Shown one piece after another: positions 37,523 to 56,932 of a stretch of DNA of 64,000 bases. The position numbers and the translations under genes were made by a program. Every line of letters begins with the position of its first letter. Position 1 is the stretch's first letter. Below the pieces are notes generated by a model that saw only the letters and a program-made list of their open reading frames with translations, searched no databases and had not been told where the DNA came from. Origin of the DNA: Hyphomicrobiales bacterium (GTDB lineage: Bacteria > Pseudomonadota > Alphaproteobacteria > Rhizobiales > MH13); NCBI GenBank assembly GCA_046290645.1, contig JBKAGZ010000004.1:196327-260326 (forward strand), given 5' to 3'.

Positions 37523-37566
37523 TGTTTCCTCCCGGGTATGGACCTTAGACATAAATGTTATTATCC

Positions 37567-37581
37567 GTTTATCTTATAAAG
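37567..37581. promoter_or_regulatory. GntR-type operator GTTTAT-CTT-ATAAAg
   Basis: Located in the divergent region between the SBP operon (start 37522, -) and the SDR gene (37610, +). A 14-nt core identical to this site occurs upstream of the GntR gene at 40436-40450. Confidence 0.65.
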
Positions 37582-37609
37582 TCAATTGACGGCAGGGAAG
37601 TGACAAAAA

Positions 37610-38389
37610 ATGCAACGACTTCAAGGCAAAACAGCCATTGTGACAGGTGGAGGCCAAGGCATAGGGGAGGCGATTGCCCGCCGTTTTGCACAAGAGGGTG
37701 CCAAGACAGTCGTCGCTGAACGCAACGCTGAGATAGGCGCGGCGACCGCGCAAAAACTGGCTGATGAAACTGGAAGTCAGGTACTGTTTGTGCACACCGA
37801 CGTTGCCGATGAGCCAAGTGTTGCCGCCATGTATCAGGCAACAAAAGCCGCTTTCGGGTCAGCTGATATTCTGGTCAATAACGCTGGTATCGCTGTGTTC
37901 AAAGAGCCTCTAGACTGCACGCGCGAAGATTGGTTGCGCTGCATGTCTGTCGATCTGGACGGCGTATGGACCTGCTGTCGAACTGTTTTGCCAGATATGC
38001 TGGAAAAGCATGACGGAGCGATCATCAACATCATTTCCAATCATGCCTTCTCAGTGATCAAATCCACCTTTCCCTACCCGGTTGCCAAGCACGCTTTGCT
38101 TGGCCTCACGCGCTCACTGGGGTTGGAGTACGCTGACAAAGGTGTCGCAGTGAACGCCATTTCACCGGGCTACACAGAAACACCTCTGGTGCGGGCCTAT
38201 TTTGAAACGTTTGACGACCCTGCTGCTGAGCGAGCTCGAGTTGAGGCACAACAGCCAGTTGGCCGCCTCTGTCAGCCCGACGAGATAGCAGCCGTCGCAG
38301 CGATGCTGGCTTCAGATGAAGCACGCTTCATGGTTGGCGAAAACATTGTGATCGACGGCGGCGTCACAATCCGCATGTATGAGGATTAG
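37610..38389 (+). CDS. SDR family oxidoreductase
   Basis: TGGGQGIGEAIA cofactor motif, NNAG, and catalytic YPVAK (YxxxK). Confidence 0.9.
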   Translation: MQRLQGKTAIVTGGGQGIGEAIARRFAQEGAKTVVAERNAEIGAATAQKLADETGSQVLFVHTDVADEPSVAAMYQATKAAFGSADILVNNAGIAVFKEPLDCTREDWLRCMSVDLDGVWTCCRTVLPDMLEKHDGAIINIISNHAFSVIKSTFPYPVAKHALLGLTRSLGLEYADKGVAVNAISPGYTETPLVRAYFETFDDPAAERARVEAQQPVGRLCQPDEIAAVAAMLASDEARFMVGENIVIDGGVTIRMYED

Positions 38390-38488
38390 AGCGTTTCGCG
38401 TTTAGCTCAAGACACAGAGCATCACATAACGCGTTGAAATCTTTGATTTCAGGCAGCGTTCTATGAATCAAGTTTAACGCAAAACGCT

Positions 38489-39568: not shown

Positions 39569-39582
39569 GACTATCCTGTTTG

Positions 39583-40419
39583 TTATCCGCTCTGACGTCT
39601 CTGAACAGCACCGTCAGATCCAGGGGATTGATCAAGCAATTGAAACCCTTGCTTGGCATCGTCAATCGCACATTGAATGAGGGTGCGCATGGCCGCTTCT
39701 GTTGCCTCTGGATCACGCGCTATGAAAGCCTGAAAAACACGCTCATGGAGGGCGTGGCTTTCATCCATACCAATCATTGTGCTGGTGTAGCCTTTTGCCG
39801 TCATCTGCAGGTCCAGCAGCAAACCGAGCGCCGCCTCAATGACCGAGAACAGCTGCTCCAGCAGTTCCGATTGCACCGCTCCAATCAGTGCGCGGTGGAA
39901 CTCAAGGTCCGTTGTGATGAAGGCCTCGCGGCGCGCCTCATGTGACCCAGTCGCATTGTCATACACATACTGCTTGGCCTGCCATGCGGCCTTGACTCGC
40001 TCAATGTGCTCCTGGTGCGCGCTTTGCGCTGCGAGATAGGCAATGCCTGGTTCCATGACCAAGCGCAGTTTTAAAAGATCGCGCAACAGTGACTCAGTAT
40101 CACCTGCTTTGATCCGCCATTCCATAACGTCGGGGTCAAGCAGTCGCCATTTTGACCGCGGCTGGATACGCGTACCATCGGACGTTTTGGAGCGTATCAT
40201 GCCCTTGGCACCAAGAATGCGGAAGGACTCACGAATGACGGACCGACTGACCCCCAGTTGATCCACCAGATCGGCTTCGCGTGTAACCGCTTCGCCTTCA
40301 CCCCATTCGCCTGAGGCAATGCGCGTACCCAAATGCTCAACGGCGCTGCCTAAGATGCCGCGTAGCTCAATCGCGCCGTCCAGCAATGAATTTGGCCCGA
40401 TTCCGCCACGATTGATCAC
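39583..40419 (-). CDS. GntR family transcriptional regulator (FadR/FCD subfamily)
   Basis: HTH EADLVDQLGVSRSVIRESFRILGAKGMI plus a helical FCD-type C-terminus. GTG start preceded by GGAGG at 7-nt spacing. Confidence 0.9.
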   Translation of the reverse strand: MINRGGIGPNSLLDGAIELRGILGSAVEHLGTRIASGEWGEGEAVTREADLVDQLGVSRSVIRESFRILGAKGMIRSKTSDGTRIQPRSKWRLLDPDVMEWRIKAGDTESLLRDLLKLRLVMEPGIAYLAAQSAHQEHIERVKAAWQAKQYVYDNATGSHEARREAFITTDLEFHRALIGAVQSELLEQLFSVIEAALGLLLDLQMTAKGYTSTMIGMDESHALHERVFQAFIARDPEATEAAMRTLIQCAIDDAKQGFQLLDQSPGSDGAVQRRQSG

Positions 40420-43013: not shown

Positions 43014-43362
43014 CACGACATGACTGGCGCAGACAGGGACCCTCTTGCTGGGCTTGGTGTCGCTTGGCCAAACAGTGTGTGTCATCATGGTGTCCGCATG
43101 GAGAGTGAAGCACGCGCGACGCGCCCCTCGTCACGGGCCAAGACATAAACGCCCATGCAAGGCGATGATATTCCACTGGATTCTCATCTTTGTTGGCTGT
43201 GCGTCTCACCGGCTCGCTCTCTTGGCTAGCCGTCTCACAAATCTTGGCTGTACGTCTTATGGCACCGACCGACGGACGTGCCGTGACAGCGGACTCGGCT
43301 TGGTCGGTGTCGCTTGCTGATGCAGGTTGTCTGTGATTCCCAAAGCTAGGCGGTCCGGTGAC

Positions 43363-44337
43363 CTAGCTGTGCCGAATATGGTCTAGCCAATGTTCGACAA
43401 TGCGGATTTGATCCGACGGCGCACCCGAACCCGGGTGTATGCCTGTCGAAAGACAGGCCGATGGCGATAGGCCGAACCGGTCACGAAACAGCCGGTTGAA
43501 ATGCTTGGGGTCGGTGAAGTGCCATCGCCGAGCGACCGCTGAGACTTGACCGCGCGACGGCTTGGCTCCCGCAAGTTCAAAAAAGCATCGGTCTAAACGG
43601 CGGTTGCGGATGTGGCGCGCGACGCCGCCTTCTTTCTCAAAGTGCCGGTAGAGCGTTGCACGCGACACGTCGAAAACGGCCGCGAGCGTATCGACACCAA
43701 GGCTGGGATCATGAAGGTTCGTGGCAATGTAATCCTGCACAAGAAGCGTCAAGGGAAGGTCGCGGTCCTCGCTCGGCGCTTCGCCAGGTCTCGGCCCGAG
43801 CATGAGCTGGCGCACCAGCCCAACAAAGGTCTGCGCAATCAGCGCGGCGTCCTGTGCGGTTCTGTCGGTGTGTGTGTTCAGCAGTTCGGCATGCGCAGCG
43901 GCCAGCAACCGGCCCTTGGGCGAGTCCATCTCAACCGAGGTGAAGGCGGGCTCCTCGCCGCGTTGGTAGCCGAGCAGCGCGTGTGGAATGCAAATGCCGC
44001 GGCTAAGGCTGCGCGCCTTCATTGACACATAACGCTGGGACATATCGATGACGTGCAAGCGCGAGGGCGAAACATCGAACCCGATATCACCGACTTCGGC
44101 CTGCCCGCCGCCCTCATAGAAGCGCTCGAACAGCAGATAGTCGTGGCATACATCCTTACGGGTGGTCGGGTCGTGAATGAGCATCTGGGCAGGCGTGGCG
44201 ACCTTGGCCATAAAGAGACCGTCTGTCTCCTCAATCTCAATGTCGACGCCTGCGCGCTCAGCCGGCTCGCGCGGGTAGACCTCGTAGATAGGCGAGGCAA
44301 GCTCTCGCCACTGTTCCAGATCAAGGTGCATGATCAC
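43363..44337 (-). CDS. AraC family transcriptional regulator
   Basis: C-terminal double HTH (VDTLAAVFDVSRATLYRHF ... WHFTDPKHFNRLFRDRFGLSPS). Confidence 0.9.
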   Translation of the reverse strand: MIMHLDLEQWRELASPIYEVYPREPAERAGVDIEIEETDGLFMAKVATPAQMLIHDPTTRKDVCHDYLLFERFYEGGGQAEVGDIGFDVSPSRLHVIDMSQRYVSMKARSLSRGICIPHALLGYQRGEEPAFTSVEMDSPKGRLLAAAHAELLNTHTDRTAQDAALIAQTFVGLVRQLMLGPRPGEAPSEDRDLPLTLLVQDYIATNLHDPSLGVDTLAAVFDVSRATLYRHFEKEGGVARHIRNRRLDRCFFELAGAKPSRGQVSAVARRWHFTDPKHFNRLFRDRFGLSPSACLSTGIHPGSGAPSDQIRIVEHWLDHIRHS

Positions 44338-44462: not shown

Positions 44463-46106
44463 TTAGGTAAGGTTGCAAATGCTCTGCGAGTTGCTGAACC
44501 ATTTACCGTCATTGTAGGAGGCCGCGACCCCTTTGAGCTTTGTCAGATTGGGTCCGAAATAGAGCTCTAGGGCATCTTCCAAGGGCGGCGTATCGGCTGC
44601 AGTGCTGCCAAGGTCAATGTCGGGATAGTTGTAGTAACACCCCTGCAACCCAGTCCCGGATGGCACGCCGCCGGTCGCCACATAGACGCCTTCATAGATG
44701 TCCCTCATCCAAGTCAGGTGTGCATCCTCGAGCGCCTCATCATCATAGCCAGGGCCGACATTGGTGGTCCAATAGCTCTGATACTGAAGCTTGGCGATCG
44801 AGTCGCGCTGATAGATGGCCGTGGCGTCATAAGGGATTTGATTGATTTGGCCGCCATAGGAGTCAAACTGGATAAGCGACTGGCTCATATCGACAAAACC
44901 CGGCTGACTGGGAATGGAAACCGGCGTCGTCAATCCCTGATAGGCTCGTTCCAACATGGTCGTGGTGAACGCGGTCATATGGTAGGCTGATTTGTACTTG
45001 CCATACCGGTTCGGGCCAGAGCCGTTAAGTGTCTGCATGCCTTCCAGGAAGGTGTAGATATGGTCGGGCCCATAGCCCACTGATGTCGATACGCCCTCAT
45101 ACTGGACGCCCAGCGCGTGGGTGCTGGCAATGTAGGGATGGCCAACCAGCTTGCAGTCCCGGTCCGACAATGGCGCGATCTCCTGCGCCAGTTTTCGATT
45201 GGCGGCAAGACGCTCACTGCGCTCAGCTCTGTAGTCCGGCAGGCTTTGCCCAGAGGATTCATAATAGGTATCGATGTCAGCCAAGCTGATCGATTTGGCG
45301 TCCATGTGGCTGCCGTGAAGAATGCCAAAAATGTTGTTGGTTATGCCGCTTTGGTCGCAATACTGCCCAAAGAAGAACGTGTTGACGATGCCGTTGAACT
45401 GATCCTGAGTCAGCGCAATGTTGCCGTCCGCATCAAACCAATCCCAGCTGTAGGTCGTCGTGAAAACGTAGGACGGCGCATCTGGCAGTGTCTCAGTGGC
45501 AAAATAGTAGCGGGTGATGATCCCAAACTGGCCGCCGCCACCGCCTCTTACAGCCCAGAACAAATCGCTATGAACATCTTTTGTGCAAGTGATCAGTTGC
45601 GGCGTACCATTTTGGACGACGACGATGTCGACGGCGGATAGATAGTCGATCGACAGGCCCATCAGCCGGGAAAGAACGCCATAGCCTCCGCCGGTGATAT
45701 GGCCGCCAAGTCCGACCGAATAGCACGAACCGGCCGGAATGGTTTTCTGGTAGAGATTGTTGAGAAGCCGGTACATGTCCCAATTGCCCATCCCCACATC
45801 CAGATAGACCATGGCAACACCGCCAAGGGTGGTCTCACCATAGCCTTTCAGAGCGGTCACATCGATGATCGCCTGCGTGTTTTCGTTGTAGACAAAGCCT
45901 TCATAGCAATGGCGGCCACAGGTGACCTGCACGGCCGACCCGCTGATGCCGGATGCCTGAATGGCGATGACCGCGTCATAAACGCCTTGCGCACTTGTCG
46001 GTCGATAAACCTGGAGTGCTGAACTGTCGGCAAACCATCGTTTGTTAAAACCCTGACGGTCACTCAATGAGGGAGGTAATAGCGCGTCCATAATCCTGTC
46101 CTTCAT
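44463..46106 (-). CDS. FAD-linked oxidase, berberine-bridge-enzyme-like (VAO/PCMH fold), probably bicovalently flavinylated
   Basis: FAD_binding_4-type region with TCGRHCYEG (His site) and PAGSCYSVGLGGHITGGGYG (Cys site), plus a BBE-type C-terminus (CYYNYPDIDLG). No signal peptide. Confidence 0.85.
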   Translation of the reverse strand: MKDRIMDALLPPSLSDRQGFNKRWFADSSALQVYRPTSAQGVYDAVIAIQASGISGSAVQVTCGRHCYEGFVYNENTQAIIDVTALKGYGETTLGGVAMVYLDVGMGNWDMYRLLNNLYQKTIPAGSCYSVGLGGHITGGGYGVLSRLMGLSIDYLSAVDIVVVQNGTPQLITCTKDVHSDLFWAVRGGGGGQFGIITRYYFATETLPDAPSYVFTTTYSWDWFDADGNIALTQDQFNGIVNTFFFGQYCDQSGITNNIFGILHGSHMDAKSISLADIDTYYESSGQSLPDYRAERSERLAANRKLAQEIAPLSDRDCKLVGHPYIASTHALGVQYEGVSTSVGYGPDHIYTFLEGMQTLNGSGPNRYGKYKSAYHMTAFTTTMLERAYQGLTTPVSIPSQPGFVDMSQSLIQFDSYGGQINQIPYDATAIYQRDSIAKLQYQSYWTTNVGPGYDDEALEDAHLTWMRDIYEGVYVATGGVPSGTGLQGCYYNYPDIDLGSTAADTPPLEDALELYFGPNLTKLKGVAASYNDGKWFSNSQSICNLT

Positions 46107-46122
46107 TCAAAAGCCCCAAGCC

Positions 46123-46158
46123 ATATATTACATAATAAAGTAATATAATACGTAATAA
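46123..46158. promoter_or_regulatory. tandem AT-rich 16-nt elements (20-bp phasing), candidate shared operator
   Basis: ATATATTACATAATAA (46123-46138) and ATATAATACGTAATAA (46143-46158), 17 nt upstream of the oxidase start. The first is the exact reverse complement of 55625-55640. Confidence 0.5.
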
Positions 46159-46480
46159 GGTATCATCAGAATCGCGCCTTGCCTAGCCATTGGGGCAAAG
46201 TATGAAGTCTTTCGACGAGGGAAATCAGGAGACGATCAGATCTTGTCTAGCAAGTTGTTGAAAGACTGCATGAAAAAGCTTCGTTTCAAGCGCGTAGATC
46301 GCTCTTGCGAAATAAAACATTGCTGATAGTGCTAAGCATACCGTGCAGACACGCCAGATGATGGCCATCTTTGATCTGTGATTGACTGTCTAACAGAACC
46401 GATTCGCCACGCGCCATGATTGCAACCGATGTGGCAAAGCCCATAGTCTTGAACGCAGACTTGGCGCGCGTTCGATCAAC

Positions 46481-47704
46481 TCAATTGTCGCTGAGCCAAC
46501 CCAAATACCCTTTCACACCACCATTGCGGGCGCGGTGAAGGTCATCAGGTTCCTGCGAAAAGTCTTGCCCGCGCTTCAGCACATCATAGACGGCCTGGCC
46601 AACAACCTCGCCCTGCCCTGGAACAAGGTTGCAAGGGTCAAGTTGGAAATAGCCAAGCTCAACTTCGTGATCGCGCACGATTATGGCCGGCTTTTGCTGG
46701 CTTAAGACACGTGCAAACGTCGCAGCGCTCGCTCCGGCTTGCCGGGCATCCACTTCCACCTGCAGCCGGTTCAGCGGATTGCCTGTCGGATCGGCGATGA
46801 CGATGGGGTTGATGCCAGGAAGTTGCGCCAGACGCGCGCGCCACGTTTCCAACACCCGGTCTTCGGCCTCGCGCATGGCCTCATGATCACGTGCCATCCA
46901 CGCCTCCATGGCGGCGATCGCGCCGGCGATGCTTTCTTTGCCGATTTTCATGCCTCGGCCCAGATTGATGTTTTGAAGATAGGCGGCACGAACAGCGGCG
47001 CGCTTCCCAGCTATGATCCCACCGGTTGGACCACCGAGAAATTTGTGCGCCGAATACACAGCAAGATCGGCCCCCGCGGCAATGAAGCCGCGCAGATCAT
47101 ACTCCGATGCCGCATCGACAATCACCGGCACGCCCTTGGACTTGCAGATCGATACAAAGCGATCGAACGGGATCTGCCCATAATGGACCACATGGTGAGA
47201 CACCACATACAGCGCGGCAGCGGTTTGATCGCCCAAAGCGCCTTCAAGCTGATGGTCCATGGCGAGGGTCGACTGGCCGATCTGTCGCGTTCTCGCCCCG
47301 GTCAGCGCAATGGCCGTATCGATCGGAGCGCCATAGCCGCAAAGATGCCCGGCCTGGACAACCACCTCAGAACGCGGTCCGGGCTGCGCGGGCAAAGCCT
47401 CGGCCTTGGCAGGGTCCAGCCCGCTCATGCATCCAGCAACCGCAAGGCTAATGCCGGCGCTTGCCGATGCCGTCATGCAACCGGCTTCGGCCCCGGTTAG
47501 ACGGGCGATGACGCCGCTGGCGTGGGCTTGCAACTCGTGCATGTTCACAAAACGCGCCATGGCTTGGCTGGTCGCATCGCGAACTTTTTGCGAGGTGATG
47601 GATGCACCCAGGCCCGTCATCGTGCCGGAAACATTGATGAGGGGCGTGTAGCCGTGCTGGTCGTACCAGTGCCAGTTGTCGTTGAGATCGGTCGACTGAG
47701 TCAT
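46481..47704 (-). CDS. SelA-like PLP-dependent enzyme (DgaE / glucosaminate-type ammonia-lyase family)
   Basis: PLP-lysine block YSAHKFLGGPTGGIIAGK, as in the SelA/DgaE family. ATG 47704 (AAGG upstream) is preferred; ATG 47737 is the alternative. Confidence 0.8.
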   Translation of the reverse strand: MTQSTDLNDNWHWYDQHGYTPLINVSGTMTGLGASITSQKVRDATSQAMARFVNMHELQAHASGVIARLTGAEAGCMTASASAGISLAVAGCMSGLDPAKAEALPAQPGPRSEVVVQAGHLCGYGAPIDTAIALTGARTRQIGQSTLAMDHQLEGALGDQTAAALYVVSHHVVHYGQIPFDRFVSICKSKGVPVIVDAASEYDLRGFIAAGADLAVYSAHKFLGGPTGGIIAGKRAAVRAAYLQNINLGRGMKIGKESIAGAIAAMEAWMARDHEAMREAEDRVLETWRARLAQLPGINPIVIADPTGNPLNRLQVEVDARQAGASAATFARVLSQQKPAIIVRDHEVELGYFQLDPCNLVPGQGEVVGQAVYDVLKRGQDFSQEPDDLHRARNGGVKGYLGWLSDN

Positions 47705-47777
47705 CGTTTTACCTTGCGTTATGAGAAGCGTTTCCATAATAGTGGAATATGAGAATCGAACCGAGGTTTATCACGCG

Positions 47778-48548
47778 ATGAACGCACCACCACGCAAACG
47801 CACCAGCGGGATAGATCGCGCTTTGCAAGTCATGGACCTTTTGACCCAGCACCAACGGCCGATGACGGCCTATGAGCTTGCAAAGCTGGCCGGCGCGCCG
47901 GTTTCGACGATCTATCGGTTGATCGACGAACTGGTCGAGCGCGACATGCTTTCGCGCCTTGATGGCACGCAGATTTGGCTCGGCCCACGCCTGATGCGGT
48001 ATGGCTTGGTCTACCGCTCCAACATGGACATGTTTGTCGAAGCCAAGCGTGAAATGAATGCGCTGAGCAAAAGAACCGGCGAAACGGTGCAGGTTTGCGC
48101 GCGCGATGACAACATGATGGTCGTGGTTGCGATGGTTGATGGCGGCGGGCATTTGCGCGTCACATCGGATGTCGGCACGCGCGTGCCGCTTAACTGGACG
48201 GCGTCTGGTCGCCTGTTGCTCGGCCACCTTTCCGACGATGAACGCCTGAAAGCCTTCCAAGAATGTGCCGAGCCGTCGGAAACCGGTCGCGCCGAAACAA
48301 ATCCGCAACGACTGGCCGAACAGTCGCGGGCTGACTTTGAGCAGGGGCTGGCGCTGCAAATGAGCAACTCCGAATACTCCGTCGCTTGCCTTGCTGCGCC
48401 GATCCGCGATGTGTCCGGCGCGTGCGCCCTGACCATGTCGGTCGTGCTTTCCGAGCAGCGCGCGCAGGAACGCCTGCCGGAACTGACCAAAGAGGTGCAA
48501 CGAGCCGCTTTGTTGGTTGAGCGTGCGCTGGGTCGGGAAGCCGCCTAA
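47778..48548 (+). CDS. IclR family transcriptional regulator
   Basis: ATG 47778. HTH IDRALQVMDLL...MTAYELAKLAGAPVSTIYRLIDEL plus an IclR effector domain. Confidence 0.9.
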   Translation: MNAPPRKRTSGIDRALQVMDLLTQHQRPMTAYELAKLAGAPVSTIYRLIDELVERDMLSRLDGTQIWLGPRLMRYGLVYRSNMDMFVEAKREMNALSKRTGETVQVCARDDNMMVVVAMVDGGGHLRVTSDVGTRVPLNWTASGRLLLGHLSDDERLKAFQECAEPSETGRAETNPQRLAEQSRADFEQGLALQMSNSEYSVACLAAPIRDVSGACALTMSVVLSEQRAQERLPELTKEVQRAALLVERALGREAA

Positions 48549-48561
48549 CGGTTTCATGGCG

Positions 48562-49083
48562 TCAATCGAGCCGCGTCTCGAAGACGGCCTCGATCTCGAC
48601 GGTGATCTGGTTGGGTAGCGATCCGACGCCGAAAGCGCTGCGCGCATGCACGCCGTCCTCTGCGCCAAAGACCTCCGTTAGCAGTTCCGACGCACCGTCA
48701 ATCACATAGGGATGATTGGCAAATTCCGGGACGGCGTTCACCATGCCCAGCAGCTTCACCACACCATTGATCTTGTCCAAACTGCCCACATGGGCGCGCA
48801 ATGCGGACAGGATGTTGATGGCCACAAGGCGGGCATGGCCACGCGCGTCTTCATCGCTAACGTCCAAACCAACTTTGCCGCATTTCAACGTGCCGTCGGG
48901 CAAAACAGGACCCTGGCCGGAAACAAAGACCAGCGCTCCAACCTGCCGCACATTCTTGAAGGCACCTATCGGCTTGGGCGCCAAGTCAGGAAGGCTCAGT
49001 CCGATTGCCCTTAGGCGACCTTCCGGTCCAAGTGGCTGGCTGGTTTGCGCTTTGGATGGATGATCGGACTCAGACAGAGTCAT
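48562..49083 (-). CDS. RidA/YjgF family reactive-intermediate (enamine/imine) deaminase
   Basis: VFVSGQGP ... ARSAFGVGSLPNQITVEIEAVFE. Overlaps the upstream ATPase gene by 14 nt. Confidence 0.85.
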   Translation of the reverse strand: MTLSESDHPSKAQTSQPLGPEGRLRAIGLSLPDLAPKPIGAFKNVRQVGALVFVSGQGPVLPDGTLKCGKVGLDVSDEDARGHARLVAINILSALRAHVGSLDKINGVVKLLGMVNAVPEFANHPYVIDGASELLTEVFGAEDGVHARSAFGVGSLPNQITVEIEAVFETRLD

Positions 49084-50035
49084 TAAGAGCCTCGATTCGT
49101 TTGCAATAGCTGGTATGAGAAGGCGAGAGCATCACCGGATCGGGCACGCCCGAACCACATGGCTCCTGGGCGATTGGGCAACGCGTTCTGAACACGCACC
49201 CCGATGGTGGATTGAGCGGACTTGGAATATCGCCCCGCAAAATCGTACGGGTTTGCGCAGCCTTGGGGTCGGGCACTGGAATGGCCGAAAGCAAGGCGCG
49301 CGTGTAAGGGTGCGAGGCGCGCTGATAAAGGTCGCCAGAGGCCCCCTTTTCAACAATCTTGCCCAAATACATGACGATCGTCTGATCGCACAGATACTCA
49401 ACAACTGACAGATCATGCGCGATGAACAGCATCGTCAGGTTGCGCCGTTCTCGCAGTTCCAGCAGCAAGTTCAACACTTGGGCCTGAATGGAAACGTCCA
49501 ACGCCGAAACGCTTTCATCAGCAACGATGAACTCCGGCTCCAAGGCCAGAGCCCGGGCGATGCCGATACGCTGGCGCTGGCCGCCGGAAAACTCGTGCGC
49601 GAAGCGCTCCATATGGTCGGCCTTAAGGCCAACTTCCTCAAGAAGCGCTGCCACCCTTTCGCTTTGCTCGCTGGCTGAGCCAATCCCATGGGCCACCAGC
49701 CCCTCGGCGATGATCGCTTTCACGCGAAGCCGTGGGTTCAGCGAGGACACAGGGTCCTGAAAGATAATCTGCATGCGCTTGCGCATGGCGCGCAACGCGG
49801 CGTGGGACAGGGTGTTGATGTCATGGCCATCAAACAATGTTTGGCCGCTGGTGGGCTCAATCAGTCGCAAGAGCGTGCGCCCAAGCGTCGTTTTGCCCGA
49901 TCCACTCTCGCCAACAAGGCCGGTAATCGAGCCTCTTTGCATATCAAAACTAACGTCGCTGACGGCCTGAACCAGCCCATCGCCGGTCTTGAACGTCTTG
50001 GACAGATTGCGGATTTGGACCAGGGGTTCAGGCAT
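49070..50035 (-). CDS. ABC transporter ATP-binding protein (DppF/OppF-like)
   Basis: ATG 50035 ([15 protein letters not shown]), GESGSGKTT, FSGGQRQRI. 8-nt overlap with the upstream ATPase gene. Confidence 0.9.
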   Translation of the reverse strand: MPEPLVQIRNLSKTFKTGDGLVQAVSDVSFDMQRGSITGLVGESGSGKTTLGRTLLRLIEPTSGQTLFDGHDINTLSHAALRAMRKRMQIIFQDPVSSLNPRLRVKAIIAEGLVAHGIGSASEQSERVAALLEEVGLKADHMERFAHEFSGGQRQRIGIARALALEPEFIVADESVSALDVSIQAQVLNLLLELRERRNLTMLFIAHDLSVVEYLCDQTIVMYLGKIVEKGASGDLYQRASHPYTRALLSAIPVPDPKAAQTRTILRGDIPSPLNPPSGCVFRTRCPIAQEPCGSGVPDPVMLSPSHTSYCKRIEALNDSV

Positions 50036-51026
50036 CGGCCAACGCCCCTTCGACCTTGATGCACGCGACCTGGTGGGCCGGCCGAAGAGGCATGAGGTCG
50101 ACCGGGTTCCGACAGGCGTCGTCGGCACGCACACAGCGCGGGGCAAACGCGCATCCTGGCGGCATGGCACTCAACGCTGGAACAGTCCCAGGAATGGGCA
50201 CAAGCCTTGTTTCCGGATCGCGGCCAGGCCTGGGTATCGAGGCCAGCAAACCTTGCGTGTACGGATGAAGTGGCAAGGCAAACAGATCATCGACGCCGGC
50301 ATCTTCGACCACGGCACCGGCATACATCACCGCCACGTCATCGGCCATTTCGGCGACCACGCCCATATCGTGTGTGATGAACAGGATGGACATGCCCAAC
50401 TCGCTCTGCAAACGGCGCATCAGGTCCAAAATCTGCGCCTGAATCGTCACATCCAGTGCAGTCGTGGGTTCATCGGCGATCAACAAAGAAGGATTGCACA
50501 CCATCGCAAGGGCGATCATCACCCGTTGGCGCATGCCACCGGAAAGCTCGTGCGGGTAGCTGTCTATGCGCTGGCCAGCTGCTGGGATCTCCACCAGATC
50601 GAGCATGTCTAGAACGCGTTTACGACGGGCTGCTGGATCTAGCTCGGTGTGCAGAAGGAGCATTTCGCCGATCTGATCGCCGATCGTGAAAAGCGGGTTC
50701 AGGGACGACATCGGCTCCTGGAAAATCATCGCGATGTCCGAGCCGCGCATGCCGCGCACCTCAGCCTGGGAGGCCTTTGTCAGGTCAACCGCGCTGCCGT
50801 CGCGGTGATGATAAGTGATCGAGCCGCCAGCCACCGATCCATTGCTGGGAAGAAGGCCCATAATCGCCAGCGAGGTCACCGACTTACCCGAACCGGATTC
50901 TCCAACGAGCGCCAGTGTCTTGCCGGCGTGCAGTTGGAAGCTTACATCGCGCAAGGCACGCACCTGTCCGCGCGGCATCTGAAAGGCGACGCTCAAGCCT
51001 GCCACGTCAAGGATCGGCGCGCTCAT
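50028..51026 (-). CDS. ABC transporter ATP-binding protein (DppD/OppD-like)
   Basis: [30 protein letters not shown]. The start overlaps the amidohydrolase stop (ATGA). Confidence 0.9.
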
Positions 51027-52153
51027 GCCAGCCCCTCGCCGTCTCGGCGCGCCGCTGGTTCCAATGACGCACCGATGACACTCATGCGCGGTTCGAACAC
51101 TTTGCTCAGTGTGAGGACATTGCCCTGACTGTCGCGGGCGCCAAGGCTGGCATCGGTGAAATCAAAGATCGTAAAATCGGCCTTTGTCCCAACCGTCAGC
51201 CCGTCGGCACCGCCCAGCCCTAGGATGGACCGTGGACGATTGGTGATAGCTTGGACGCATTCCTCAAAAGACAGGCCAACGGCCGCCAGTTTGGAAACTG
51301 TTGTTGCCAGATCGTGCACCGGTCCATCGATATTGCGCAGATGCAGGTCGGTGGAGATGGAAAATGGCACCAATCCATCACCAATCGCTTGGCGCGCCGT
51401 CTCAAAATCAAAGGACGCCACGCCATGACCAATATCCATATGCACGCCACTGTCGGCCAGGTTGCGCGCCTGCGCATAGAGCGCAGCCGTATCGGTGATG
51501 GATCCAGCTTTTTTACCATTAAAACAGTGCGTTATGATGTCGCCAGGTGCAAGGATATCAAACACCTCATCGATCAGCGGTGGCGGCTCTCCAACATGCA
51601 CCATCAACGGTAGGCCTGCGATTTCAGCCACACGTTTGGCGATCTTGGCAGGCGTGATGCCCCAACTGCCAACGATCACGCCGCTGGCACGCACCTTGAC
51701 CCCGCAAATCACATCACGATTGGCGTCGATCACCGCCAGCGTGCGGTCGATATCGATCGAGCGCAGATCGATCAGTTCCGGCACCCTGTTGCAGGCAACC
51801 AGGCCGATAGAACCGATATTGAGAAACGCACGGATCGTTTCCGTGCTCGGCTCAATCACATACTCGCGCAAACCGTGAAAACTTGCTTCGCCCGCCGAGC
51901 CGGCATCGGCCATCGCCGTGACGCCCGTCGCTCGCCCCGCATCGCCTGGACGCACGGAAATGTCGGTGCCGCCATGCCACACATGTACATGCAAATCACA
52001 CCAACCCGGCGACAGGTAAGCGTCGCCGCAATCGACCGTGTGAGAATCTGGGGCCGGCGTATCAGAGACCAGCCCAGCATCATCCACGTGGATGACTGTC
52101 TTGTCGGCGCCGTCAAAACCGATGGCACGAAAATTGGTCAACGTGAGCGCCAT
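51023..52153 (-). CDS. amidohydrolase/deacetylase family metallohydrolase
   Basis: Metal-binding HxH block SPGWCDLHVHVWHGG plus later His/Asp blocks (MVHVGE, ITHCFNG, ISTDLH). The gene is embedded between the permease and ATPase genes. Confidence 0.85.
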   Translation of the reverse strand: MALTLTNFRAIGFDGADKTVIHVDDAGLVSDTPAPDSHTVDCGDAYLSPGWCDLHVHVWHGGTDISVRPGDAGRATGVTAMADAGSAGEASFHGLREYVIEPSTETIRAFLNIGSIGLVACNRVPELIDLRSIDIDRTLAVIDANRDVICGVKVRASGVIVGSWGITPAKIAKRVAEIAGLPLMVHVGEPPPLIDEVFDILAPGDIITHCFNGKKAGSITDTAALYAQARNLADSGVHMDIGHGVASFDFETARQAIGDGLVPFSISTDLHLRNIDGPVHDLATTVSKLAAVGLSFEECVQAITNRPRSILGLGGADGLTVGTKADFTIFDFTDASLGARDSQGNVLTLSKVFEPRMSVIGASLEPAARRDGEGLA

Positions 52154-53011
52154 CTAGACCTCCTTGGCCAATCTGGGATCAAGCGCATCACGCAAGCCAT
52201 CGCCGACCAATTGTAAGGAGAGAACGGAGATCGAGATCGCGATTCCTGGGAAGAAAATCAGGTAAGAGGCCTGATCGATATATTGCCGCCCCTCATTGAT
52301 CATCGTGCCCCAGGTCGGCGTGGACGGGTCTACGCCGACGCCGAGGAAAGACAGACCGGCTTCGGCCAGCATGGCATAGGCAAAGATGAACGTGCCCTGC
52401 ACGATGATCGGCGACATGATGTTACGCAGCACGTGGGTGGTCATGATCCGAGACGTCGAGGTGCCCAGCGCCCGGGCCGCTTCCACATAGGGCAGCTCGC
52501 GGATCACCAGCGTTGAGGCGCGCACGATGCGTGCGATGCGCGGGGCGTAAACAATGGACAAGGCAAGGATGACATTGACCATCGATCCACCCAGGATCGA
52601 TACCAAAGCGATGGCCAGCAGAATATCGGGAAAGGCCATCATCGCATCGATCAACCGCGACAGCAGTCCGTCCAACTGGCGAAAGAACCCGGCAAGCAGG
52701 CCGATAAAGATGCCAACGATGGACGACAGGATCGCCACGCCTAGCCCGATGGCAAGCGACACTTGGCCGGCAAAAAGCAGCCGCGAGGCGACGTCGCGAC
52801 CGAAGGCGTCCGCCCCCAACCAGAACGCGGAACCGGGTGGCGTCAACCGCTGACGAACGGACATCTGCGCCGGATCAGCCGGCGCGATAAGGGCAGCAAG
52901 AGCACACAGAGCCAGGATGATGAGAAAAATGATCAGCGCCACAAGGACAGAACGGCGCGAGAACAGGAGTTCCAGAAATTTCGGTTCATCGGCAAACGCG
53001 GAAACAGCCAT
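52154..53011 (-). CDS. ABC permease (DppC/OppC-like)
   Basis: Polytopic membrane protein. Its stop abuts the amidohydrolase start codon. Confidence 0.9.
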   Translation of the reverse strand: MAVSAFADEPKFLELLFSRRSVLVALIIFLIILALCALAALIAPADPAQMSVRQRLTPPGSAFWLGADAFGRDVASRLLFAGQVSLAIGLGVAILSSIVGIFIGLLAGFFRQLDGLLSRLIDAMMAFPDILLAIALVSILGGSMVNVILALSIVYAPRIARIVRASTLVIRELPYVEAARALGTSTSRIMTTHVLRNIMSPIIVQGTFIFAYAMLAEAGLSFLGVGVDPSTPTWGTMINEGRQYIDQASYLIFFPGIAISISVLSLQLVGDGLRDALDPRLAKEV

Positions 53012-53018
53012 CAGACCC

Positions 53019-53960
53019 TCAATATTTCACGCGTTTGTCGACGACCAGATAGAGCAGATCGACGACGAGATTGATAACCACATAAAGCGTGGCAACAACG
53101 ATCAACGTGCCTTGGATAACTGGGTAGTCGCGTCGCAGCACCGCCGACACTACCAGATTGCCCATGCCAGGAATGTTGAACACACGCTCTGTCACCACCG
53201 CGCCAGACACCAGCAACGCGAAGGTCAGACCGACAACAGTCAGGATGGGAATGGCCGCGTTCTTGAGGGCATGGCGCAGCACAACCCTCCGCTCGCCCAT
53301 ACCCTTGGAACGGGCGGTGCGAATGTAATCCTCACCCAAAATGTCGAGCATGGACGCACGCGTAAAACGCAAGATGATGGCCGAGTTGGCGATACCCAGA
53401 ACGATCGATGGCAGGATGAGAAAGCCCATGCGATCGAAAAAATCCGCGTCCGGCCCGCCATATCCGGACGCCGGGAACCAGCCGAGCTCTGTGGCCAGAT
53501 AGCGCTGGAACATCAAACCGGTCCAAAAACTGGGAACGGAGGCCGCCAGCATCGCCGCTGAGATGGCTGTTTGATCAAGCCACGATCCGCGCCGATAGGC
53601 AGCATAAATGCCGATGGGCGTGGCAATGACCAGCGCGATCAGCAGGGAAAAAAGGGCTAGAAAGATGGTCGGCTCGGCCCGGCCCGCGAGAACCGTCGTC
53701 ACCGGTTGATTGAAGAAGATCGAAGTCCCCAGATCACCGCGCAGCGCATTCGCCGCGAAGGTGAGATACTGCACGATGATGGGACGGTCGAGACCAAGGC
53801 GTTCGCGCAACTGCGCTGCGTCTTCGGGCGTCGCATCCGGACCCAGCATCAGCGCCGCAGGGTCCCCAGGCGCCAACCGCACGATCACAAAGGCGATTGT
53901 CAGAACCATCAGGATCACGACAATCATGCCAAAGGATCGCCTAAGAAGGTATCGGGTCAT
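53019..53960 (-). CDS. ABC permease (DppB/OppB-like)
   Basis: N-terminus MTRYLLRRSFGMIVVILMVLTIAFVIVRLAPGDP is typical of DppB. Confidence 0.9.
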   Translation of the reverse strand: MTRYLLRRSFGMIVVILMVLTIAFVIVRLAPGDPAALMLGPDATPEDAAQLRERLGLDRPIIVQYLTFAANALRGDLGTSIFFNQPVTTVLAGRAEPTIFLALFSLLIALVIATPIGIYAAYRRGSWLDQTAISAAMLAASVPSFWTGLMFQRYLATELGWFPASGYGGPDADFFDRMGFLILPSIVLGIANSAIILRFTRASMLDILGEDYIRTARSKGMGERRVVLRHALKNAAIPILTVVGLTFALLVSGAVVTERVFNIPGMGNLVVSAVLRRDYPVIQGTLIVVATLYVVINLVVDLLYLVVDKRVKY

Positions 53961-54041
53961 AACGCCTTTACTTCTCGCAACGGTTGGGGGCGGCGGGGGT
54001 GCAGTCTAGGGGGAGACGGCGCGGGATGCACACATTGGATC

Positions 54042-54074
54042 CATGGGATCGACCCGCATAGGACCGATCCCATG
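54042..54074 (-). other. intercistronic hairpin after SBP gene (10-bp perfect stem)
   Basis: CATGGGATCG-N13-CGATCCCATG, 14 nt after the SBP stop. No U-run. Confidence 0.4.
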
Positions 54075-54087
54075 TCGCTTTTCGGCG

Positions 54088-55611
54088 TCAGTTCGCGCTG
54101 GCGTTCCAGAAGAACGGCCAGGGTGTTGGGGTAACGCCAGTCAATCCTTGGCGATGACCCATCAGCGCATTGAAACCGCCAATCTTGATAAAGCCAACAT
54201 CTTCAAAAACGCGACGTTGCAGATCAGCAAACAGAGCTTGACGTTCTGCCGGATCTGTCTCGGTCGTAAAGGCAGCCAAGATGGCATCCTTTTCCTCATC
54301 CGACCATCCAAGACGAGACGTCGCCGCATAGAGGCTGGTGAGCGCCGGTTCTGGGAGGAACGGCGAGTGGGTGATGTAGATATCCCACAGAGCCGGATCA
54401 TTGCGGCGCTGGCCGAGTGTGGCCCAGTCCACCACGTCCATGTGAACGGAAAATCCAGCCTGCTCCAGGGCAACGGCGGCAACTTCAGCCATCTTGAAGT
54501 GGAATTCATACTGGCGCGACGTCAGGATGCGTAGCGGCGTGCCGTCATACCCAGCTTCGCTCAGCAGATCGCCAGCGCGTTGCTGATCGTTCTGATTGTA
54601 AAGCTCAACGCCTTCATCCGTGCGCCATGACCAGCCATCAGGGTACATCGGGCCGTCAACCACGAAAAAGTTATCATCGCCAAAGGCTGCAAACAGCATA
54701 TCATCAATCGGCAGTGCAGCCTGCAAAGCCTGGCGCACCGGCAGATCGGTCAACAGGCCAGCCTTGTGGTTGATCGCGAAGATCGGCCAACCAAACGGCC
54801 GCAGCAATAGAGGGTCGGCAACATCGCTGGCCTCTATGCGCGCTAAAGATTCTGCCGGCAATCCATCGGCAAAATCGAACTGGCCAGAAAGCAAACCCTC
54901 AACGCGTGTGTTGGCATCCGGCACCGGCACGAAACGAATTTCATCAGCAATCTGCGACCGCATGCCAGCGGCACCGCTGGACGGCTCCTGGCGCGAAACA
55001 TAGCCGTCAAACCGGCTAAGCTGTAAATATTGGTCGGGCACATGATCGACGATTTGATACGGTCCTGTCCCGACAATCTCGCCCATCGTCTCCGCCAGCG
55101 TCTCTTCGGGATAGATCACAGCCGCCGAGTTAGAAAACGCAAGCAGGGAAAGCAGCGGCGAGTACGCTTCGTTCATCTGAATTTCGATCGAATAATCCGA
55201 CGTTGCCGTGACCGCAGCGACTTGCTCCGCCACCCCGCGACCACGCGTGGCGACCTCCAGCCAGCGATTGAGCGACGCCACCACATCAGCGGAGTCCATC
55301 GATGAGCCATCATGGAATGTGATGCCCTGGCGCAGATCGATCGCGTAGGTAAGCCCATCATCACTGATCATCGGCAGGTCGACGGCAAGCAGTGGAGCCA
55401 CCGCCCAACTTTCATCGAAGGTGTAGAGCGTTTCGACAAAATGCTGGGTGACGATGCTGACAACATCCTTTGTCGACATCATCGGATCAAGCGTTTCAGG
55501 TTCGCCGACAATGGCAACATTCAAGGTTTGCGCTGACGCTGGCGTTGCCAGCATTGCACCGGCCAAAAGGGCCGCGCAGAATGCACTCTTTTTCAGAAAC
55601 TGGACTGGCAT
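54088..55611 (-). CDS. ABC transporter substrate-binding protein, family 5 (peptide/nickel/oligosaccharide type)
   Basis: 507 aa with signal peptide FCAALLAGAMLATPASAQ. GGGAGG Shine-Dalgarno upstream. Confidence 0.9.
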   Translation of the reverse strand: MPVQFLKKSAFCAALLAGAMLATPASAQTLNVAIVGEPETLDPMMSTKDVVSIVTQHFVETLYTFDESWAVAPLLAVDLPMISDDGLTYAIDLRQGITFHDGSSMDSADVVASLNRWLEVATRGRGVAEQVAAVTATSDYSIEIQMNEAYSPLLSLLAFSNSAAVIYPEETLAETMGEIVGTGPYQIVDHVPDQYLQLSRFDGYVSRQEPSSGAAGMRSQIADEIRFVPVPDANTRVEGLLSGQFDFADGLPAESLARIEASDVADPLLLRPFGWPIFAINHKAGLLTDLPVRQALQAALPIDDMLFAAFGDDNFFVVDGPMYPDGWSWRTDEGVELYNQNDQQRAGDLLSEAGYDGTPLRILTSRQYEFHFKMAEVAAVALEQAGFSVHMDVVDWATLGQRRNDPALWDIYITHSPFLPEPALTSLYAATSRLGWSDEEKDAILAAFTTETDPAERQALFADLQRRVFEDVGFIKIGGFNALMGHRQGLTGVTPTPWPFFWNASAN

Positions 55612-55624
55612 GGTAATACCTCCC

Positions 55625-55660
55625 TTATTATGTAATATATATCATTGTTAAGGAGTATAC
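55625..55660. promoter_or_regulatory. tandem AT-rich 16-nt elements (20-bp phasing), candidate shared operator
   Basis: TTATTATGTAATATAT (55625-55640) and TTGTTAAGGAGTATAC (55645-55660, 11/16 match), starting 14 nt upstream of the SBP start. The first is the exact reverse complement of 46123-46138. Confidence 0.5.
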
Positions 55661-56215
55661 GCTTTTTCGTTCCAATCGGTCAAGACAGTGGATTGACGTT
55701 ACGATCGACGGCGATGAAAACAGGTTGGAAAGCGAAAGTTGGCACGACGAAAAGTGCAGAAAACCCAGCGCCCTGCGAAAAGGGCGTTCGACATCCAACA
55801 CTGGATGTGGGCGTTTAAAGGTTGGTCTTGGGCTGATGTAAGAACGGCACTGCGGGCCGAACTGGCTGGTCAATGTGTGATTGAATTGACAGCGGAAAGG
55901 CTCAAGCCCCAGCGCACCAACCGCGGATCATATCGGCCATAAAGGCACAGGTCAGCGAACGCCTGTGGCTGCCAATTCGCCACTCAGGGCAATTGGTCTG
56001 CGTCGCCATCCATCAAAACGCTGGCTTGATAGCTAGCTGTTTGAATAGCGCGTTGCGGGTCGGTTGTGCGTTGACGAGAACCTAGGAGGATTGTGATGCC
56101 AAACGGCTTTCGGCAACCCCACAACTGAGGGCCGAACCAAAGCGAAAGCAAACGGCTGCGGCAACCAGACCATGTTCTTCGACGGCCGACGACATGCGCC
56201 AATTGTTGCCCGCCA

Positions 56216-56932
56216 TTAAGGCGCCATTTCGTCAATGATTTCTTCGATCGCTCGATCGTCATTTTCTTCCGCCCGCGCGATCGCTGGTGTCGCGCCGATC
56301 CAACTGCCGTCCTCAACGCATGTAAGCATCAAATGCGCAAGGTCCCCATGCCGCGTGCGGATCAGATTTTTTGGAATTGCATCTGGCTGTACCACATAGT
56401 CGTCGGTGCATGCACCGTCCATCAGCCATCCTGGCCTCACGGCTGTCCAGTTGAGATCGGTGCCGCGCAGTTGGCTTTCCATTTCCGCCATCTGCGCAAA
56501 CACACGTGCCAGCGCTGGTAACGCCGTTAGCTTAAACGCCAGTGGACCTCGGTTCAGGGTTTCGACAAAACTGGCCGAGATCACAACCAAGCGTTTGACG
56601 CCGACCTCGTTCATCGCCTGACAAATCCGCGCCGTCCCTTGGGTGTAAAGCGGTGGCGGGTCCAACAAAGTTGGAACATCATTGGCAACGCCCAATGCCG
56701 ATAGGACAGCGGTTGAACCATCGATGATGTCGCCGAGCGGATCGCTGAGAACATCAGCATTGTGCCAGCTTAGTCCATCTCTGGCTTCAAGTGCCTCGGC
56801 ACCTTCGTGAACTATACCCCTCACCTGAAATCCGCGCGCGAGCGATTGGGCAACAAGATGTTCGCCGGTCGCGCCATCCGCGCCAAAAATGGTAACAGTT
56901 CTGGTGTTGCTCTTCGTCACATTGAACTCCAT
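56216..56932 (-). CDS. NAD(P)H-binding (NmrA/atypical SDR-like) oxidoreductase
   Basis: N-terminal VTIFGADGATGEHLV glycine-rich motif; 238 aa. Confidence 0.75.
   Translation of the reverse strand: MEFNVTKSNTRTVTIFGADGATGEHLVAQSLARGFQVRGIVHEGAEALEARDGLSWHNADVLSDPLGDIIDGSTAVLSALGVANDVPTLLDPPPLYTQGTARICQAMNEVGVKRLVVISASFVETLNRGPLAFKLTALPALARVFAQMAEMESQLRGTDLNWTAVRPGWLMDGACTDDYVVQPDAIPKNLIRTRHGDLAHLMLTCVEDGSWIGATPAIARAEENDDRAIEEIIDEMAP

Follow-up and report, generated by a model that had tools for sequence, protein, structure and literature searches.

Oxidation of chitin by lytic polysaccharide monooxygenases (LPMOs) releases large amounts of N-acetylglucosaminic acid (GlcNAc1A) in the sea. To our knowledge, only one catabolic route for GlcNAc1A has been described, in Gammaproteobacteria. 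The ong pathway of Pseudoalteromonas prydzensis involves the deacetylase OngB, the deaminase OngC, the RidA protein OngD, KdgK, and the regulator OngR (PMC9537276, PMC12017989). Related chemistry is known from DGL/DgaE of Salmonella, an ammonia-lyase for D-glucosaminate 6-phosphate, which carries out a beta-elimination on a D-alpha-amino acid and has His162-His163 as its proton-donor loop (PMC9529869). Haloarchaeal chitin clusters have been proposed to convert glucosamine (GlcN) via glucosaminate to 2-keto-3-deoxy(phospho)gluconate (KD(P)G), and an IclR regulator has been reported in those of Natrarchaeobius (PMC12343721). An N-acetyl-D-hexosamine oxidase (HexNAcO; EC 1.1.3.29, PDB 7zzk) has been described in Ralstonia solanacearum, and its biological role was stated to be unclear (PMC9299179). 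Here, we analyzed a 64-kb stretch of DNA from a Hyphomicrobiales bacterium (contig JBKAGZ010000004.1; the whole stretch is referred to as the window), in which a locus at 44463-55660 encodes an ATP-binding cassette (ABC) importer, an amidohydrolase, a DgaE-like lyase, a Rid protein, an IclR regulator, and a flavin oxidase. We propose that this locus contains a catabolic module, self-contained and horizontally mobile, whose substrate is an N-acylated 2-amino-2-deoxy-aldonate, most likely GlcNAc1A or N-acetylgalactosaminic acid (GalNAc1A). Judged from gene content and comparative genomics, we regard this proposal as an even call. A first-pass annotation of the same DNA, which had suggested an oxidative amino-sugar pathway here, also pointed to a GlcNAc1A route in Pseudoalteromonas, and that route is real (PMC9537276).

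Genes were located by listing open reading frames (ORFs) and by Pfam and NCBIfam scans, and their ranges match independent calls on an identical public contig (L100; other loci are also designated by L numbers). All module genes are on the minus strand, with iclR as the sole exception. The transport operon is led by the gene for a family-5 substrate-binding protein (SBP) of the Dpp/Opp type, which has a signal-like N terminus (54088-55611; PF00496, 2.5e-59). It continues with ABC permease 1 (53019-53960; BPD_transp_1 and BPD_transp_1_N; the L100 call starts at 53927), ABC permease 2 (52154-53011; BPD_transp_1 and OppC_N), an EF_0837/PRK09237-type metallo-amidohydrolase that is a putative N-deacylase (51023-52153), and two ABC ATPases of the oligo_HPY type, each with PF00005 and PF08352 (ATPase 1, 50028-51026; ATPase 2, 49070-50035). 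Its last gene (48562-49083; PF14588) encodes a Rid2-like member of the Rid (YjgF) family, a putative enamine/imine deaminase. The Dpp/Opp (PepT) importer set is complete, with a family-5 SBP, two BPD_transp_1 permeases, and two oligo_HPY ATPases. The position of the amidohydrolase gene inside the transporter operon, between the permease and ATPase genes, is as the first-pass annotation described it, and every component that it listed (oxidase, SBP importer, amidohydrolase, pyridoxal 5'-phosphate [PLP] enzyme, Rid, IclR, and AraC) is in the sequence.

The iclR gene (47778-48548, plus strand; ATG at 47778, 256 amino acids, HTH_IclR and IclR_C domains) is transcribed toward the rid gene and away from the lyase gene. 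The latter encodes a DgaE/SelA-like fold-type I PLP enzyme of 407 amino acids (46481-47704, ATG at 47704; the ORF reaches 47737). After a gap of 374 bp comes the gene for a BBE/VAO-type flavin adenine dinucleotide (FAD) oxidase of 542 amino acids (44463-46091; the ORF reaches 46106). It probably starts at the ATG at 46091, which is preceded by AAGGA, and the 542-residue protein exactly matches a public record; the protein read from 46106 had no match in the look-up. The starts of four genes (lyase, IclR, ATPase 2, and oxidase) were corrected from homologues and the L100 gene calls, and the ORF start of ATPase 2 was 50170 before correction to the 321 amino acids called in L100. Current annotations of the module genes include "dihydroorotase," "selenocysteine synthase," "peptide ABC transporter," and "aclacinomycin oxidase."

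To place these genes in a wider context, we collected 80 related loci by a lyase-based scan, with one genome per species, and searched their flanks (±10 kb) by tblastn with all window proteins; ORF calling in these loci was crude. A nine-gene core (SBP, two permeases, amidohydrolase, two ATPases, Rid, IclR, and DgaE-like lyase) was in unchanged order in about 62 of the 80 loci by tblastn, and the exceptions were mostly truncated contigs. SBP identity across the syntenic loci was 63 to 90%, and iclR was conserved in 73 loci. This arrangement of the core is not chance. The carriers are mainly marine Rhodobacterales and Hyphomicrobiales, and the module is also found on plasmids, in Sagittula, Salipiger, Martelella, and Paracoccus. 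Outside the core and the oxidase, no window gene was conserved beside the module in the 80 loci. A Pfam census of the 93 nearest noncore neighbors found 131 families, of which integrases were the commonest (4/93). The census has no dominant extra family, which rules out a hidden conserved tenth gene. Because nothing else is conserved beside the module and it occurs on plasmids, it appears to be a self-contained, mobile unit.

The lyase is 36% identical to Salmonella DGL/DgaE and matches PDB 7lc0 at 2.5e-64; a structure search with it returned only SelA/DgaE-type and Cys/Met-type enzymes. In the alignment with 7lc0, it keeps the PLP lysine and the His162-His163 loop, with the SHH and S-x-x-K motifs. 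Two residues of the three-arginine cluster that in DGL is proposed to hold the 6-phosphate are also kept (R301 and R332), whereas R346 is replaced by cysteine in the motif DPCN. This position is Cys in all 11 ABC-linked lyases examined, Arg in both lyases linked to a phosphotransferase system (PTS), and Met in Halorussus. Cysteine in the ABC-linked lyases weakly favors an unphosphorylated substrate, an argument that depends on a manually docked phosphate model and on those two PTS-linked sequences. We propose that the window enzyme is a 2-amino-2-deoxy-aldonate ammonia-lyase that would act by alpha,beta-elimination, and the expected reaction type is shared with Salmonella dga, a beta-elimination on a D-2-amino-aldonate. 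In contrast to dga, the module has no PTS, DgaF aldolase, or sigma-54 activator, and it adds a deacylase and a Rid protein. The first-pass assignment to SelA/DgaE-like lyases is upheld as far as homology to DGL and the three catalytic residues go, but the protein scores below the DgaE cut-offs (TIGR01437, 296.2 versus 385.3 bits; NF047797, 267.6 versus 600 bits) and is without one arginine of the putative phosphate site. The Rid protein matches PF14588 (64.6 bits, 1.1e-17) and has the catalytic-arginine motif HARSAFGVGSLP. It is under the cut-off for archetypal RidA (TIGR00004, 37.6 versus 106.25 bits), and among known structures it is nearest to 3d01 and to two Rid proteins, PA0814 and ACIAD3089.

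The amidohydrolase scores just below the cut-off of NF006689 (362.3 versus 371 bits) and further below that of TIGR03583 (269.6 versus 432 bits). It matches PDB entries 2ogj (2.7e-129) and 2ics (EF_0837; 2.9e-56), and no D-aminoacylase structure was matched at an E value of ≤1e-3. Its gene is paired with a DgaE/SelA-related PLP gene in 62 of the 80 loci and also in Enterococcus and Klebsiella. The first-pass annotation had linked the SBP to chitooligosaccharide binders, but its nearest relatives bind opines, glutathione, or nickel. Its best PDB matches are 8vdx (2e-35), the agropinic acid binder AgaA (4e-24), and GsiB/YliB (1.7e-23), along with NikA and AppA; the agrocinopine binder AccA (~1e-11) and the Vibrio chitooligosaccharide binder VhCBP (5yqw; 1.4e-8) are weaker matches. 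A literature search on structures 8VDX, 8T7J, 2OGJ, 8JE0, and 8WZY found nothing on function, and the Aeromonas and OngB papers are silent on the EF_0837-type amidohydrolase family.

The closest relative of the oxidase that is solved or characterized is Ralstonia HexNAcO (7zzk), which it matches over its full length at 5e-72 with ~40% identity. The bit scores are 246 for 7zzk, 185 for TamL, 173 for Dbv29, 170 for AknOx, and 80 for ChitO, so that the margin is moderate. The domain matches are PF08031 (27.1 bits) and, weakly, PF01565. The histidine and cysteine that bind FAD bicovalently are kept, in GRHCYE and GSCYSVGLGGH, which align to HexNAcO His64 and Cys123. The two enzymes also share the BBE/VAO fold, a small hydrophobic residue at the Leu251 position of HexNAcO (Ile in the window oxidase), and the lack of a signal peptide, none having been found in the window sequence. 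They differ in overall sequence and in genetic setting, as the window gene belongs to a predicted regulon that also includes downstream catabolic enzymes. When metagenomes were scanned with the oxidase, the only match was weak and irrelevant.

An oxidase homologue was within 10 kb in 5 of the 80 loci, which makes it one of the two commonest noncore neighbors, level with KdgK-like kinases. Look-ups with oxidase homologues added L081/L082 and L097 (81 to 86% identical), L083/L084 (67%), and L095 (44%), so that module-adjacent homologues are now known from L039, L053, L055, L066, L075, L081 to L084, L095, and L097. In a neighbor-joining tree without support values, the module-linked oxidases form three separate subclades: that of the window, that of L039, L055, L066, and L095, and L075, which is nearest to HexNAcO. 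Clades from unrelated contexts fall between them. The placement of the gene also varies: it is downstream of the lyase gene, divergent from the SBP gene, or upstream of iclR on the same strand. In clade B, the oxidase and iclR genes are same-strand neighbors and a lactonase gene flanks the SBP gene. This pattern suggests at least three independent associations of oxidase and module, related genomes not being counted as independent. Since the oxidase gene is adjacent in few loci, the core must be able to function without it. We propose that the oxidase is an accessory, coregulated part of the module and a putative N-acetylhexosamine C1 oxidase. In L062, a GntR/Peripla_BP regulator gene and a PF10282 lactonase gene (496-2774) are present, as they are in the oxidase-bearing clade-B loci. 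An AAA-ATPase_like/PDDEXK_9 gene (14853-16418) is ~2.5 kb past iclR, on the side where clade-B loci have the oxidase, which may have been replaced in L062 by a mobile or defense-type gene.

A shared DNA element connects the oxidase gene to the module. Exact copies of the 16-mer TTATTATGTAATATAT are found at only two places in the window. One (55625-55640) is 14 nucleotides (nt) upstream of the SBP ATG, and the other (46123-46138), in the opposite orientation, precedes the oxidase ATG at 46091 by 31 nt. A copy with two mismatches (46143-46158) is another 20 nt upstream on the oxidase side; the number of matches expected at three or fewer mismatches is 0.03. We also built a 20-nt position weight matrix (PWM) by seeded expectation maximization from the SBP-upstream regions of 55 other genomes, with the window, L070, and L081 to L084 excluded, and scanned both strands with it. 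The consensus ATATATTACATAATAATGGA is an AT-rich dyad, and the 3' end of the model overlaps the ribosome-binding site (RBS) of the SBP gene. The six best matches in the window (17 to 33 bits) are confined to the upstream regions of three units: SBP operon, lyase gene, and oxidase gene. The next-best match was below 11 bits, and the maximum over 20 shuffles was 16.1 bits.

Upstream of the SBP gene, the operator-like site or sites (55621-55654; 32.7 and 19.1 bits) are between the RBS and a sigma-70-like promoter, TTGACC-18-TATACT (55654-55683, minus strand), which is a consensus match only, at 10 of 12 positions. The promoter-like element adjoins the operator on its upstream side, with equal spacing in L001, and the arrangement would suit a repressor. 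The 73-bp intergenic region between iclR and the lyase gene has the palindromic operator-like site TTCCACTATTATGGAA (47732-47752; 26.0 bits), a type of site that is conserved there in L001, L081, and L083. Two or three overlapping sites precede the oxidase gene (46123-46162; 23.1, 19.9, and 17.3 bits). All three sites are also the top PWM matches in L083, in which the SBP-upstream 21-mer recurs with two mismatches upstream of the oxidase gene. In L081 and L097, whose contigs do not include the SBP end, the top matches are upstream of the lyase and/or oxidase genes, and in L053 they are in the intergenic region common to the oxidase and SBP genes. In the L039 clade, a site upstream of the oxidase was not evident, and there was only a weak one before iclR.

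We rejected an RNA-level or RBS role for this AT-rich element because it is reversed upstream of the oxidase and has no RBS nearby at the lyase gene. Its occurrence in both orientations and away from an RBS favors a DNA operator. The shared operator predicts that the lyase and oxidase genes are coregulated with the SBP operon, in line with the coinduction of oxidase and ABC operon on which the first-pass annotation had staked its proposal. We infer that the IclR protein binds the operator, and we propose that it controls the three units.

The same annotation had counted an AraC regulator among the components. The AraC/FeaR-like gene is at 43363-44337, outside the locus, and we rejected it as a module part: it is not a conserved neighbor, it is not beside the oxidase in L081 or L097, and the PWM scan found no operator site for it, which places it outside the predicted regulon. 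Together with an autotransporter gene (707 amino acids), it adjoins the oxidase gene at 40965-44337 on the minus strand. The pair is retained in L100, unlike in L081 and L097, and probably represents an insertion beside the module that is unrelated to it. An NAD(P)-binding gene (56216-56932), a TrkA_C gene, and a MATE gene were also rejected as module parts, since they have no counterpart in the related loci.

Several neighborhoods point to sugar acids. KdgK-like kinase genes adjoin the lyase gene in five related loci (NF052444, 222 to 284 bits, versus at most ~120 bits for other kinase models). PF10282 lactonase genes are by the module in L039, L062, and L095, and an SMP-30 gluconolactonase gene is by it in L028. 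In L083, a complete N-acetylglucosamine (GlcNAc; nag) cluster is directly by the oxidase gene, with a CUT1 ABC importer, a ROK kinase, a SIS deaminase, a GntR/UTRA regulator, and NagA. The window was searched by tblastn with NagA, NagB-type (SIS), ROK-kinase, KdgK, lactonase, and SSS-transporter queries, and none was found. Eda and hexosaminidase were not among the Pfam-annotated window genes, though no direct search for these two was made, and no PTS, aldolase, or kinase gene was found in the module/window. With no terminal-pathway genes found in the window, the pathway would end outside the 64 kb.

The pairing of amidohydrolase and lyase extends to operons of other bacteria. In Klebsiella pneumoniae (L099, 5327-14027), the two are encoded with 2-keto-3-deoxy-6-phosphogluconate (KDGP) aldolase and a lactonase, and in Enterococcus faecalis (L089, 1-10861) with MupG, a PTS IIC protein, and a sugar kinase. 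Both operons also hold genes for PRD regulators, an SFCGS glycine-rich protein, DUF4312, DUF4311, and DUF4310. The amidohydrolase and lyase genes are adjacent in these operons and follow the same order as in the module. In contrast to the module, aldolase and lactonase are encoded in these operons, and Rid, the oxidase, and IclR are not. The PTS-like or SFCGS uptake suggests phosphorylated intermediates, and these operons are likely to be the phosphorylated counterpart of the proposed pathway. In Halorussus, genes for a Dpp-type ABC importer, a PIG-L deacetylase, a DgaE-like protein, glucose 1-dehydrogenase, and Rid are found together. The predicted haloarchaeal pathway is like ours in its Dpp-type ABC importer and in that amino-sugar C1 oxidation would precede DgaE-like and Rid steps. 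It is unlike ours in that an NAD(P) dehydrogenase would oxidize the sugar after PIG-L deacetylation, and the haloarchaeal lyase is distant (33% identity) and without the His-His loop. No IclR was annotated in the Halorussus stretch that we examined.

Lyase and Rid genes are also found together with other importers. Without an amidohydrolase, they accompany an amino-acid-type (PAAT) ABC importer in L020, L022, L030, and L074 and a Dpp-type importer in Rhizobium leguminosarum pRL2 (L087, 5989-13089). In R. etli CFN 42, a lone amidohydrolase homologue (54% identical) is on p42e (L098, 8974-10182), ~46 kb from the lyase homologue. Given these rhizobial lyases and the lone R. etli copy, the pairing of amidohydrolase and lyase is not obligatory. 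L048 (13472-20769) and, in equal layout, L049 have a second, paralogous Rid/DgaE-like pair a few kilobases downstream of the module, with the DgaE-like protein 43% identical to the window lyase. The link of this pair to a CUT1 ABC importer and Fe-ADH_2 suggests a related substrate for which the importer is of the sugar type. In L080 (7995-21108), genes for an MlrC/M81 peptidase, Rid, a DgaE-like protein, a CUT1 ABC importer, a Gfo/Idh/MocA oxidoreductase, a ROK kinase, Asparaginase_2, a NagA-like deacetylase, and a GntR/UTRA regulator are grouped. The substrate of such a cluster could be glycosyl-asparagine or a different N-acetyl amino sugar derivative, with a dehydrogenase replacing the oxidase. 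The variety of transporters that accompany lyase and Rid would be explained by a substrate that, like glucosaminate, is an amino acid as well as a sugar acid.

From this context, we infer the substrate and every catalytic step of the following pathway. The family-5 SBP and Dpp-type ABC importer would take up an N-acyl aldonate from the periplasm, and the EF_0837-type amidohydrolase would deacylate it to a free D-alpha-amino acid (glucosaminate). The DgaE-like PLP enzyme would then eliminate the C3 hydroxyl by alpha,beta-elimination, and Rid would hydrolyze the resulting enamine/imine to NH3 and 2-keto-3-deoxy-gluconate (KDG) or -galactonate. KdgK and Eda, encoded elsewhere in the genome, would lead into the Entner-Doudoroff route. 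As an optional feeder, the cytoplasmic oxidase would convert intracellular GlcNAc or N-acetylgalactosamine (GalNAc) to the lactone and then the aldonate, which would enter at the deacylation step. IclR would act via the dyad ATATATTACATAATAATGGA to control the SBP operon as well as the lyase and oxidase genes. The sequence of intermediates in the first-pass annotation, from N-acetyl-aldonate to amino-aldonate to 2-keto-3-deoxy-aldonate and NH3, fits the HexNAcO likeness, the sugar-acid neighbors, and the shared operator, but the oxidase that it placed at the entry is accessory.

Several observations weigh against this pathway. The lyase and the amidohydrolase both score under curated family cut-offs, and the Arg346 argument goes back to a docked model and two sequences. 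The transporter is of the peptide (Dpp/Opp) type, and the nearest solved relatives of its SBP bind opines, glutathione, or nickel, not sugars. Neither kdgK, eda, a lactonase gene, nor a hexosaminidase gene was seen in the window (eda and hexosaminidase by Pfam annotation only). The oxidase is only ~40% identical to HexNAcO, about 90% of the modules are without it, and equally close homologues (44 to 56%) are found in a YcaO cluster and in cyanobacterial and housekeeping loci. The neighbors of the module are very heterogeneous, and M20 and M81 peptidase genes are beside it in two loci (L018 and L080).

The peptide-type architecture could mean that the importer, with its oligo_HPY ATPases and an SBP closest to GsiB, NikA, AppA, and AgaA, takes up dipeptides or N-acyl-D-amino acids (D-Ser, D-Thr, or other beta-hydroxy amino acids). 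The amidohydrolase would then be a dipeptidase or D-aminoacylase, the lyase a D-Ser/D-Thr-type dehydratase whose aminoacrylate Rid quenches, and the oxidase an enzyme with a separate substrate. This is in keeping with the chemistry of DgaE, a beta-elimination on a D-alpha-amino acid (PMC9529869), with the M20 and M81 peptidases that flank the module in L018 and L080, and with the four loci in which DgaE-like and Rid proteins are tied to an amino-acid ABC importer. However, it leaves unexplained the KdgK-like kinases, lactonases, HexNAcO-like oxidases, and nag cluster, as well as KDGP aldolase, lactonase, and MupG, with which the amidohydrolase and lyase families are associated elsewhere. It also does not account for the haloarchaeal glucose-dehydrogenase/chitin context or for an operator common to the module and a carbohydrate-type oxidase. 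We consider such a peptide or D-amino-acid module unlikely. The resemblance of the SBP to AgaA (4e-24) and more weakly to AccA (~1e-11), the frequency of the module on plasmids of Rhizobiaceae and roseobacters, and the flanking integrases would fit a sugar-amino-acid conjugate or lactam of the agropinic/mannopinic type instead. The amidohydrolase would open or cleave the conjugate, the oxidase would act on its sugar part, and the lyase and Rid would degrade its amino-acid part. The AgaA similarity is modest, most carriers are marine and free-living, the module has no genes of the opine oxidase or synthase type, and the partners of amidohydrolase and DgaE elsewhere are sugar-acid enzymes. We consider an opine or Amadori-like role improbable.

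The first-pass annotation had the ABC system import GlcNAc or chitobiose, with the cytoplasmic oxidase as an obligatory first step. Some family-5 SBPs do bind chitooligosaccharides (VhCBP, 5yqw, matches at 1.4e-8), archaeal Dpp-type systems adjoin DgaE-like genes in chitin clusters, and the oxidase is in the predicted regulon. Yet the ~90% of modules without the oxidase or a conserved dehydrogenase would then be incomplete, no hexosaminidase is encoded in the module, and L083 has a canonical GlcNAc ABC importer and nag cluster of its own right by the oxidase. The first of these points makes an N-acyl aldonate the more likely cargo, and the separate GlcNAc importer of L083 likewise favors import of the acid over import of GlcNAc. 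Import of the sugar itself thus seems quite unlikely, a shade more so than a peptide role and a shade less so than an opine role. Finally, the oxidase gene might merely be adjacent to an ABC/amidohydrolase/lyase module with which it has no functional relation. Most modules are without the gene, homologues of 44 to 56% identity are found in unrelated contexts, and there is a gap of 374 bp between the oxidase and lyase genes. Nevertheless, module-adjacent oxidases fall in three subclades with four or more gene arrangements, and the window, L081, L083, L097, and L053 all have the shared operator before the oxidase gene. We consider chance adjacency very improbable.

The preferred pathway, a route for N-acyl aldonates, can be compared with ong step by step. 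Both would begin with deacetylation, followed by PLP-dependent deamination with a Rid partner to give KDG, with no prior phosphorylation, and both have a dedicated local repressor-type regulator and a marine habitat. They differ in the deacetylase (EF_0837 type here, a subtype-V D-aminoacylase in OngB) and in the deaminase (SelA/DgaE fold-type I here, OngC type in ong), as judged from structure matches and not from the OngB and OngC sequences. Uptake here would be by a Dpp-type ABC importer, whereas ong has an SSS symporter and TonB receptors. The module has no GH20 protein OngA and no KdgK, it adds a flavin oxidase, and its carriers are Alphaproteobacteria rather than Gammaproteobacteria. A literature search found no published description of the module, which on comparative genomics and the predicted regulon appears to be a variant of the ong-like kind of pathway. 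A wider claim can be made only tentatively, and we lean somewhat against it. It is that marine Alphaproteobacteria have a complete nonphosphorylative oxidative route for N-acetylhexosamines and LPMO-derived aldonates in which the family at every catalytic step is unlike that of ong (EF_0837-type deacetylase, DgaE-like lyase acting on unphosphorylated glucosaminate, and Rid2-like deaminase, with Dpp-type uptake), and in which a HexNAcO would serve as an IclR-controlled cytoplasmic feeder.

Other parts of the window hold further gene groups. At 13-6185 on the plus strand are genes for a PGDH_C dehydrogenase (13-858), a Gfo/Idh/MocA protein (2498-3571), a RuBisCO-like protein (3550-4833), and, overlapping the last, a DUF1537-type acid-sugar kinase with SBD_N and NBD_C domains (4743-6185). 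We take this group to resemble tetronate/apionate acid-sugar catabolic clusters. An ordinary RND efflux pump (AcrB type, 1,060 amino acids) with an HlyD-type adaptor and a divergent TetR gene is encoded at 6922-12049. On the minus strand, 28698-32249 has genes for an M24 peptidase-family protein, an enolase-superfamily MR/MLE enzyme, and a family III CoA-transferase in a row. Also on the minus strand, a GH88 unsaturated glucuronyl hydrolase-family gene (38489-39568) is beside a GntR/FCD regulator gene (39583-40419), with a ribose-type ABC importer (Peripla_BP_4 SBP, double ATPase, and BPD_transp_2 permease; 33864-37552) downstream. This group (33864-40419) is probably a separate uronate or oligosaccharide utilization unit.

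If the proposed pathway is correct, a second, nonhomologous route for GlcNAc1A would be present on roseobacter and rhizobial plasmids and islands, and more consumers of oxidized chitin would be known. The pair formed by EF_0837-type and DgaE-like proteins would have a function, in Enterococcus and Klebsiella as well, and the annotation of the module genes in marine metagenomes would change. The analysis also offers the prediction of a single IclR regulon with a defined 20-nt operator. Furthermore, the orphan N-acetyl-D-hexosamine oxidase would gain a physiological role.

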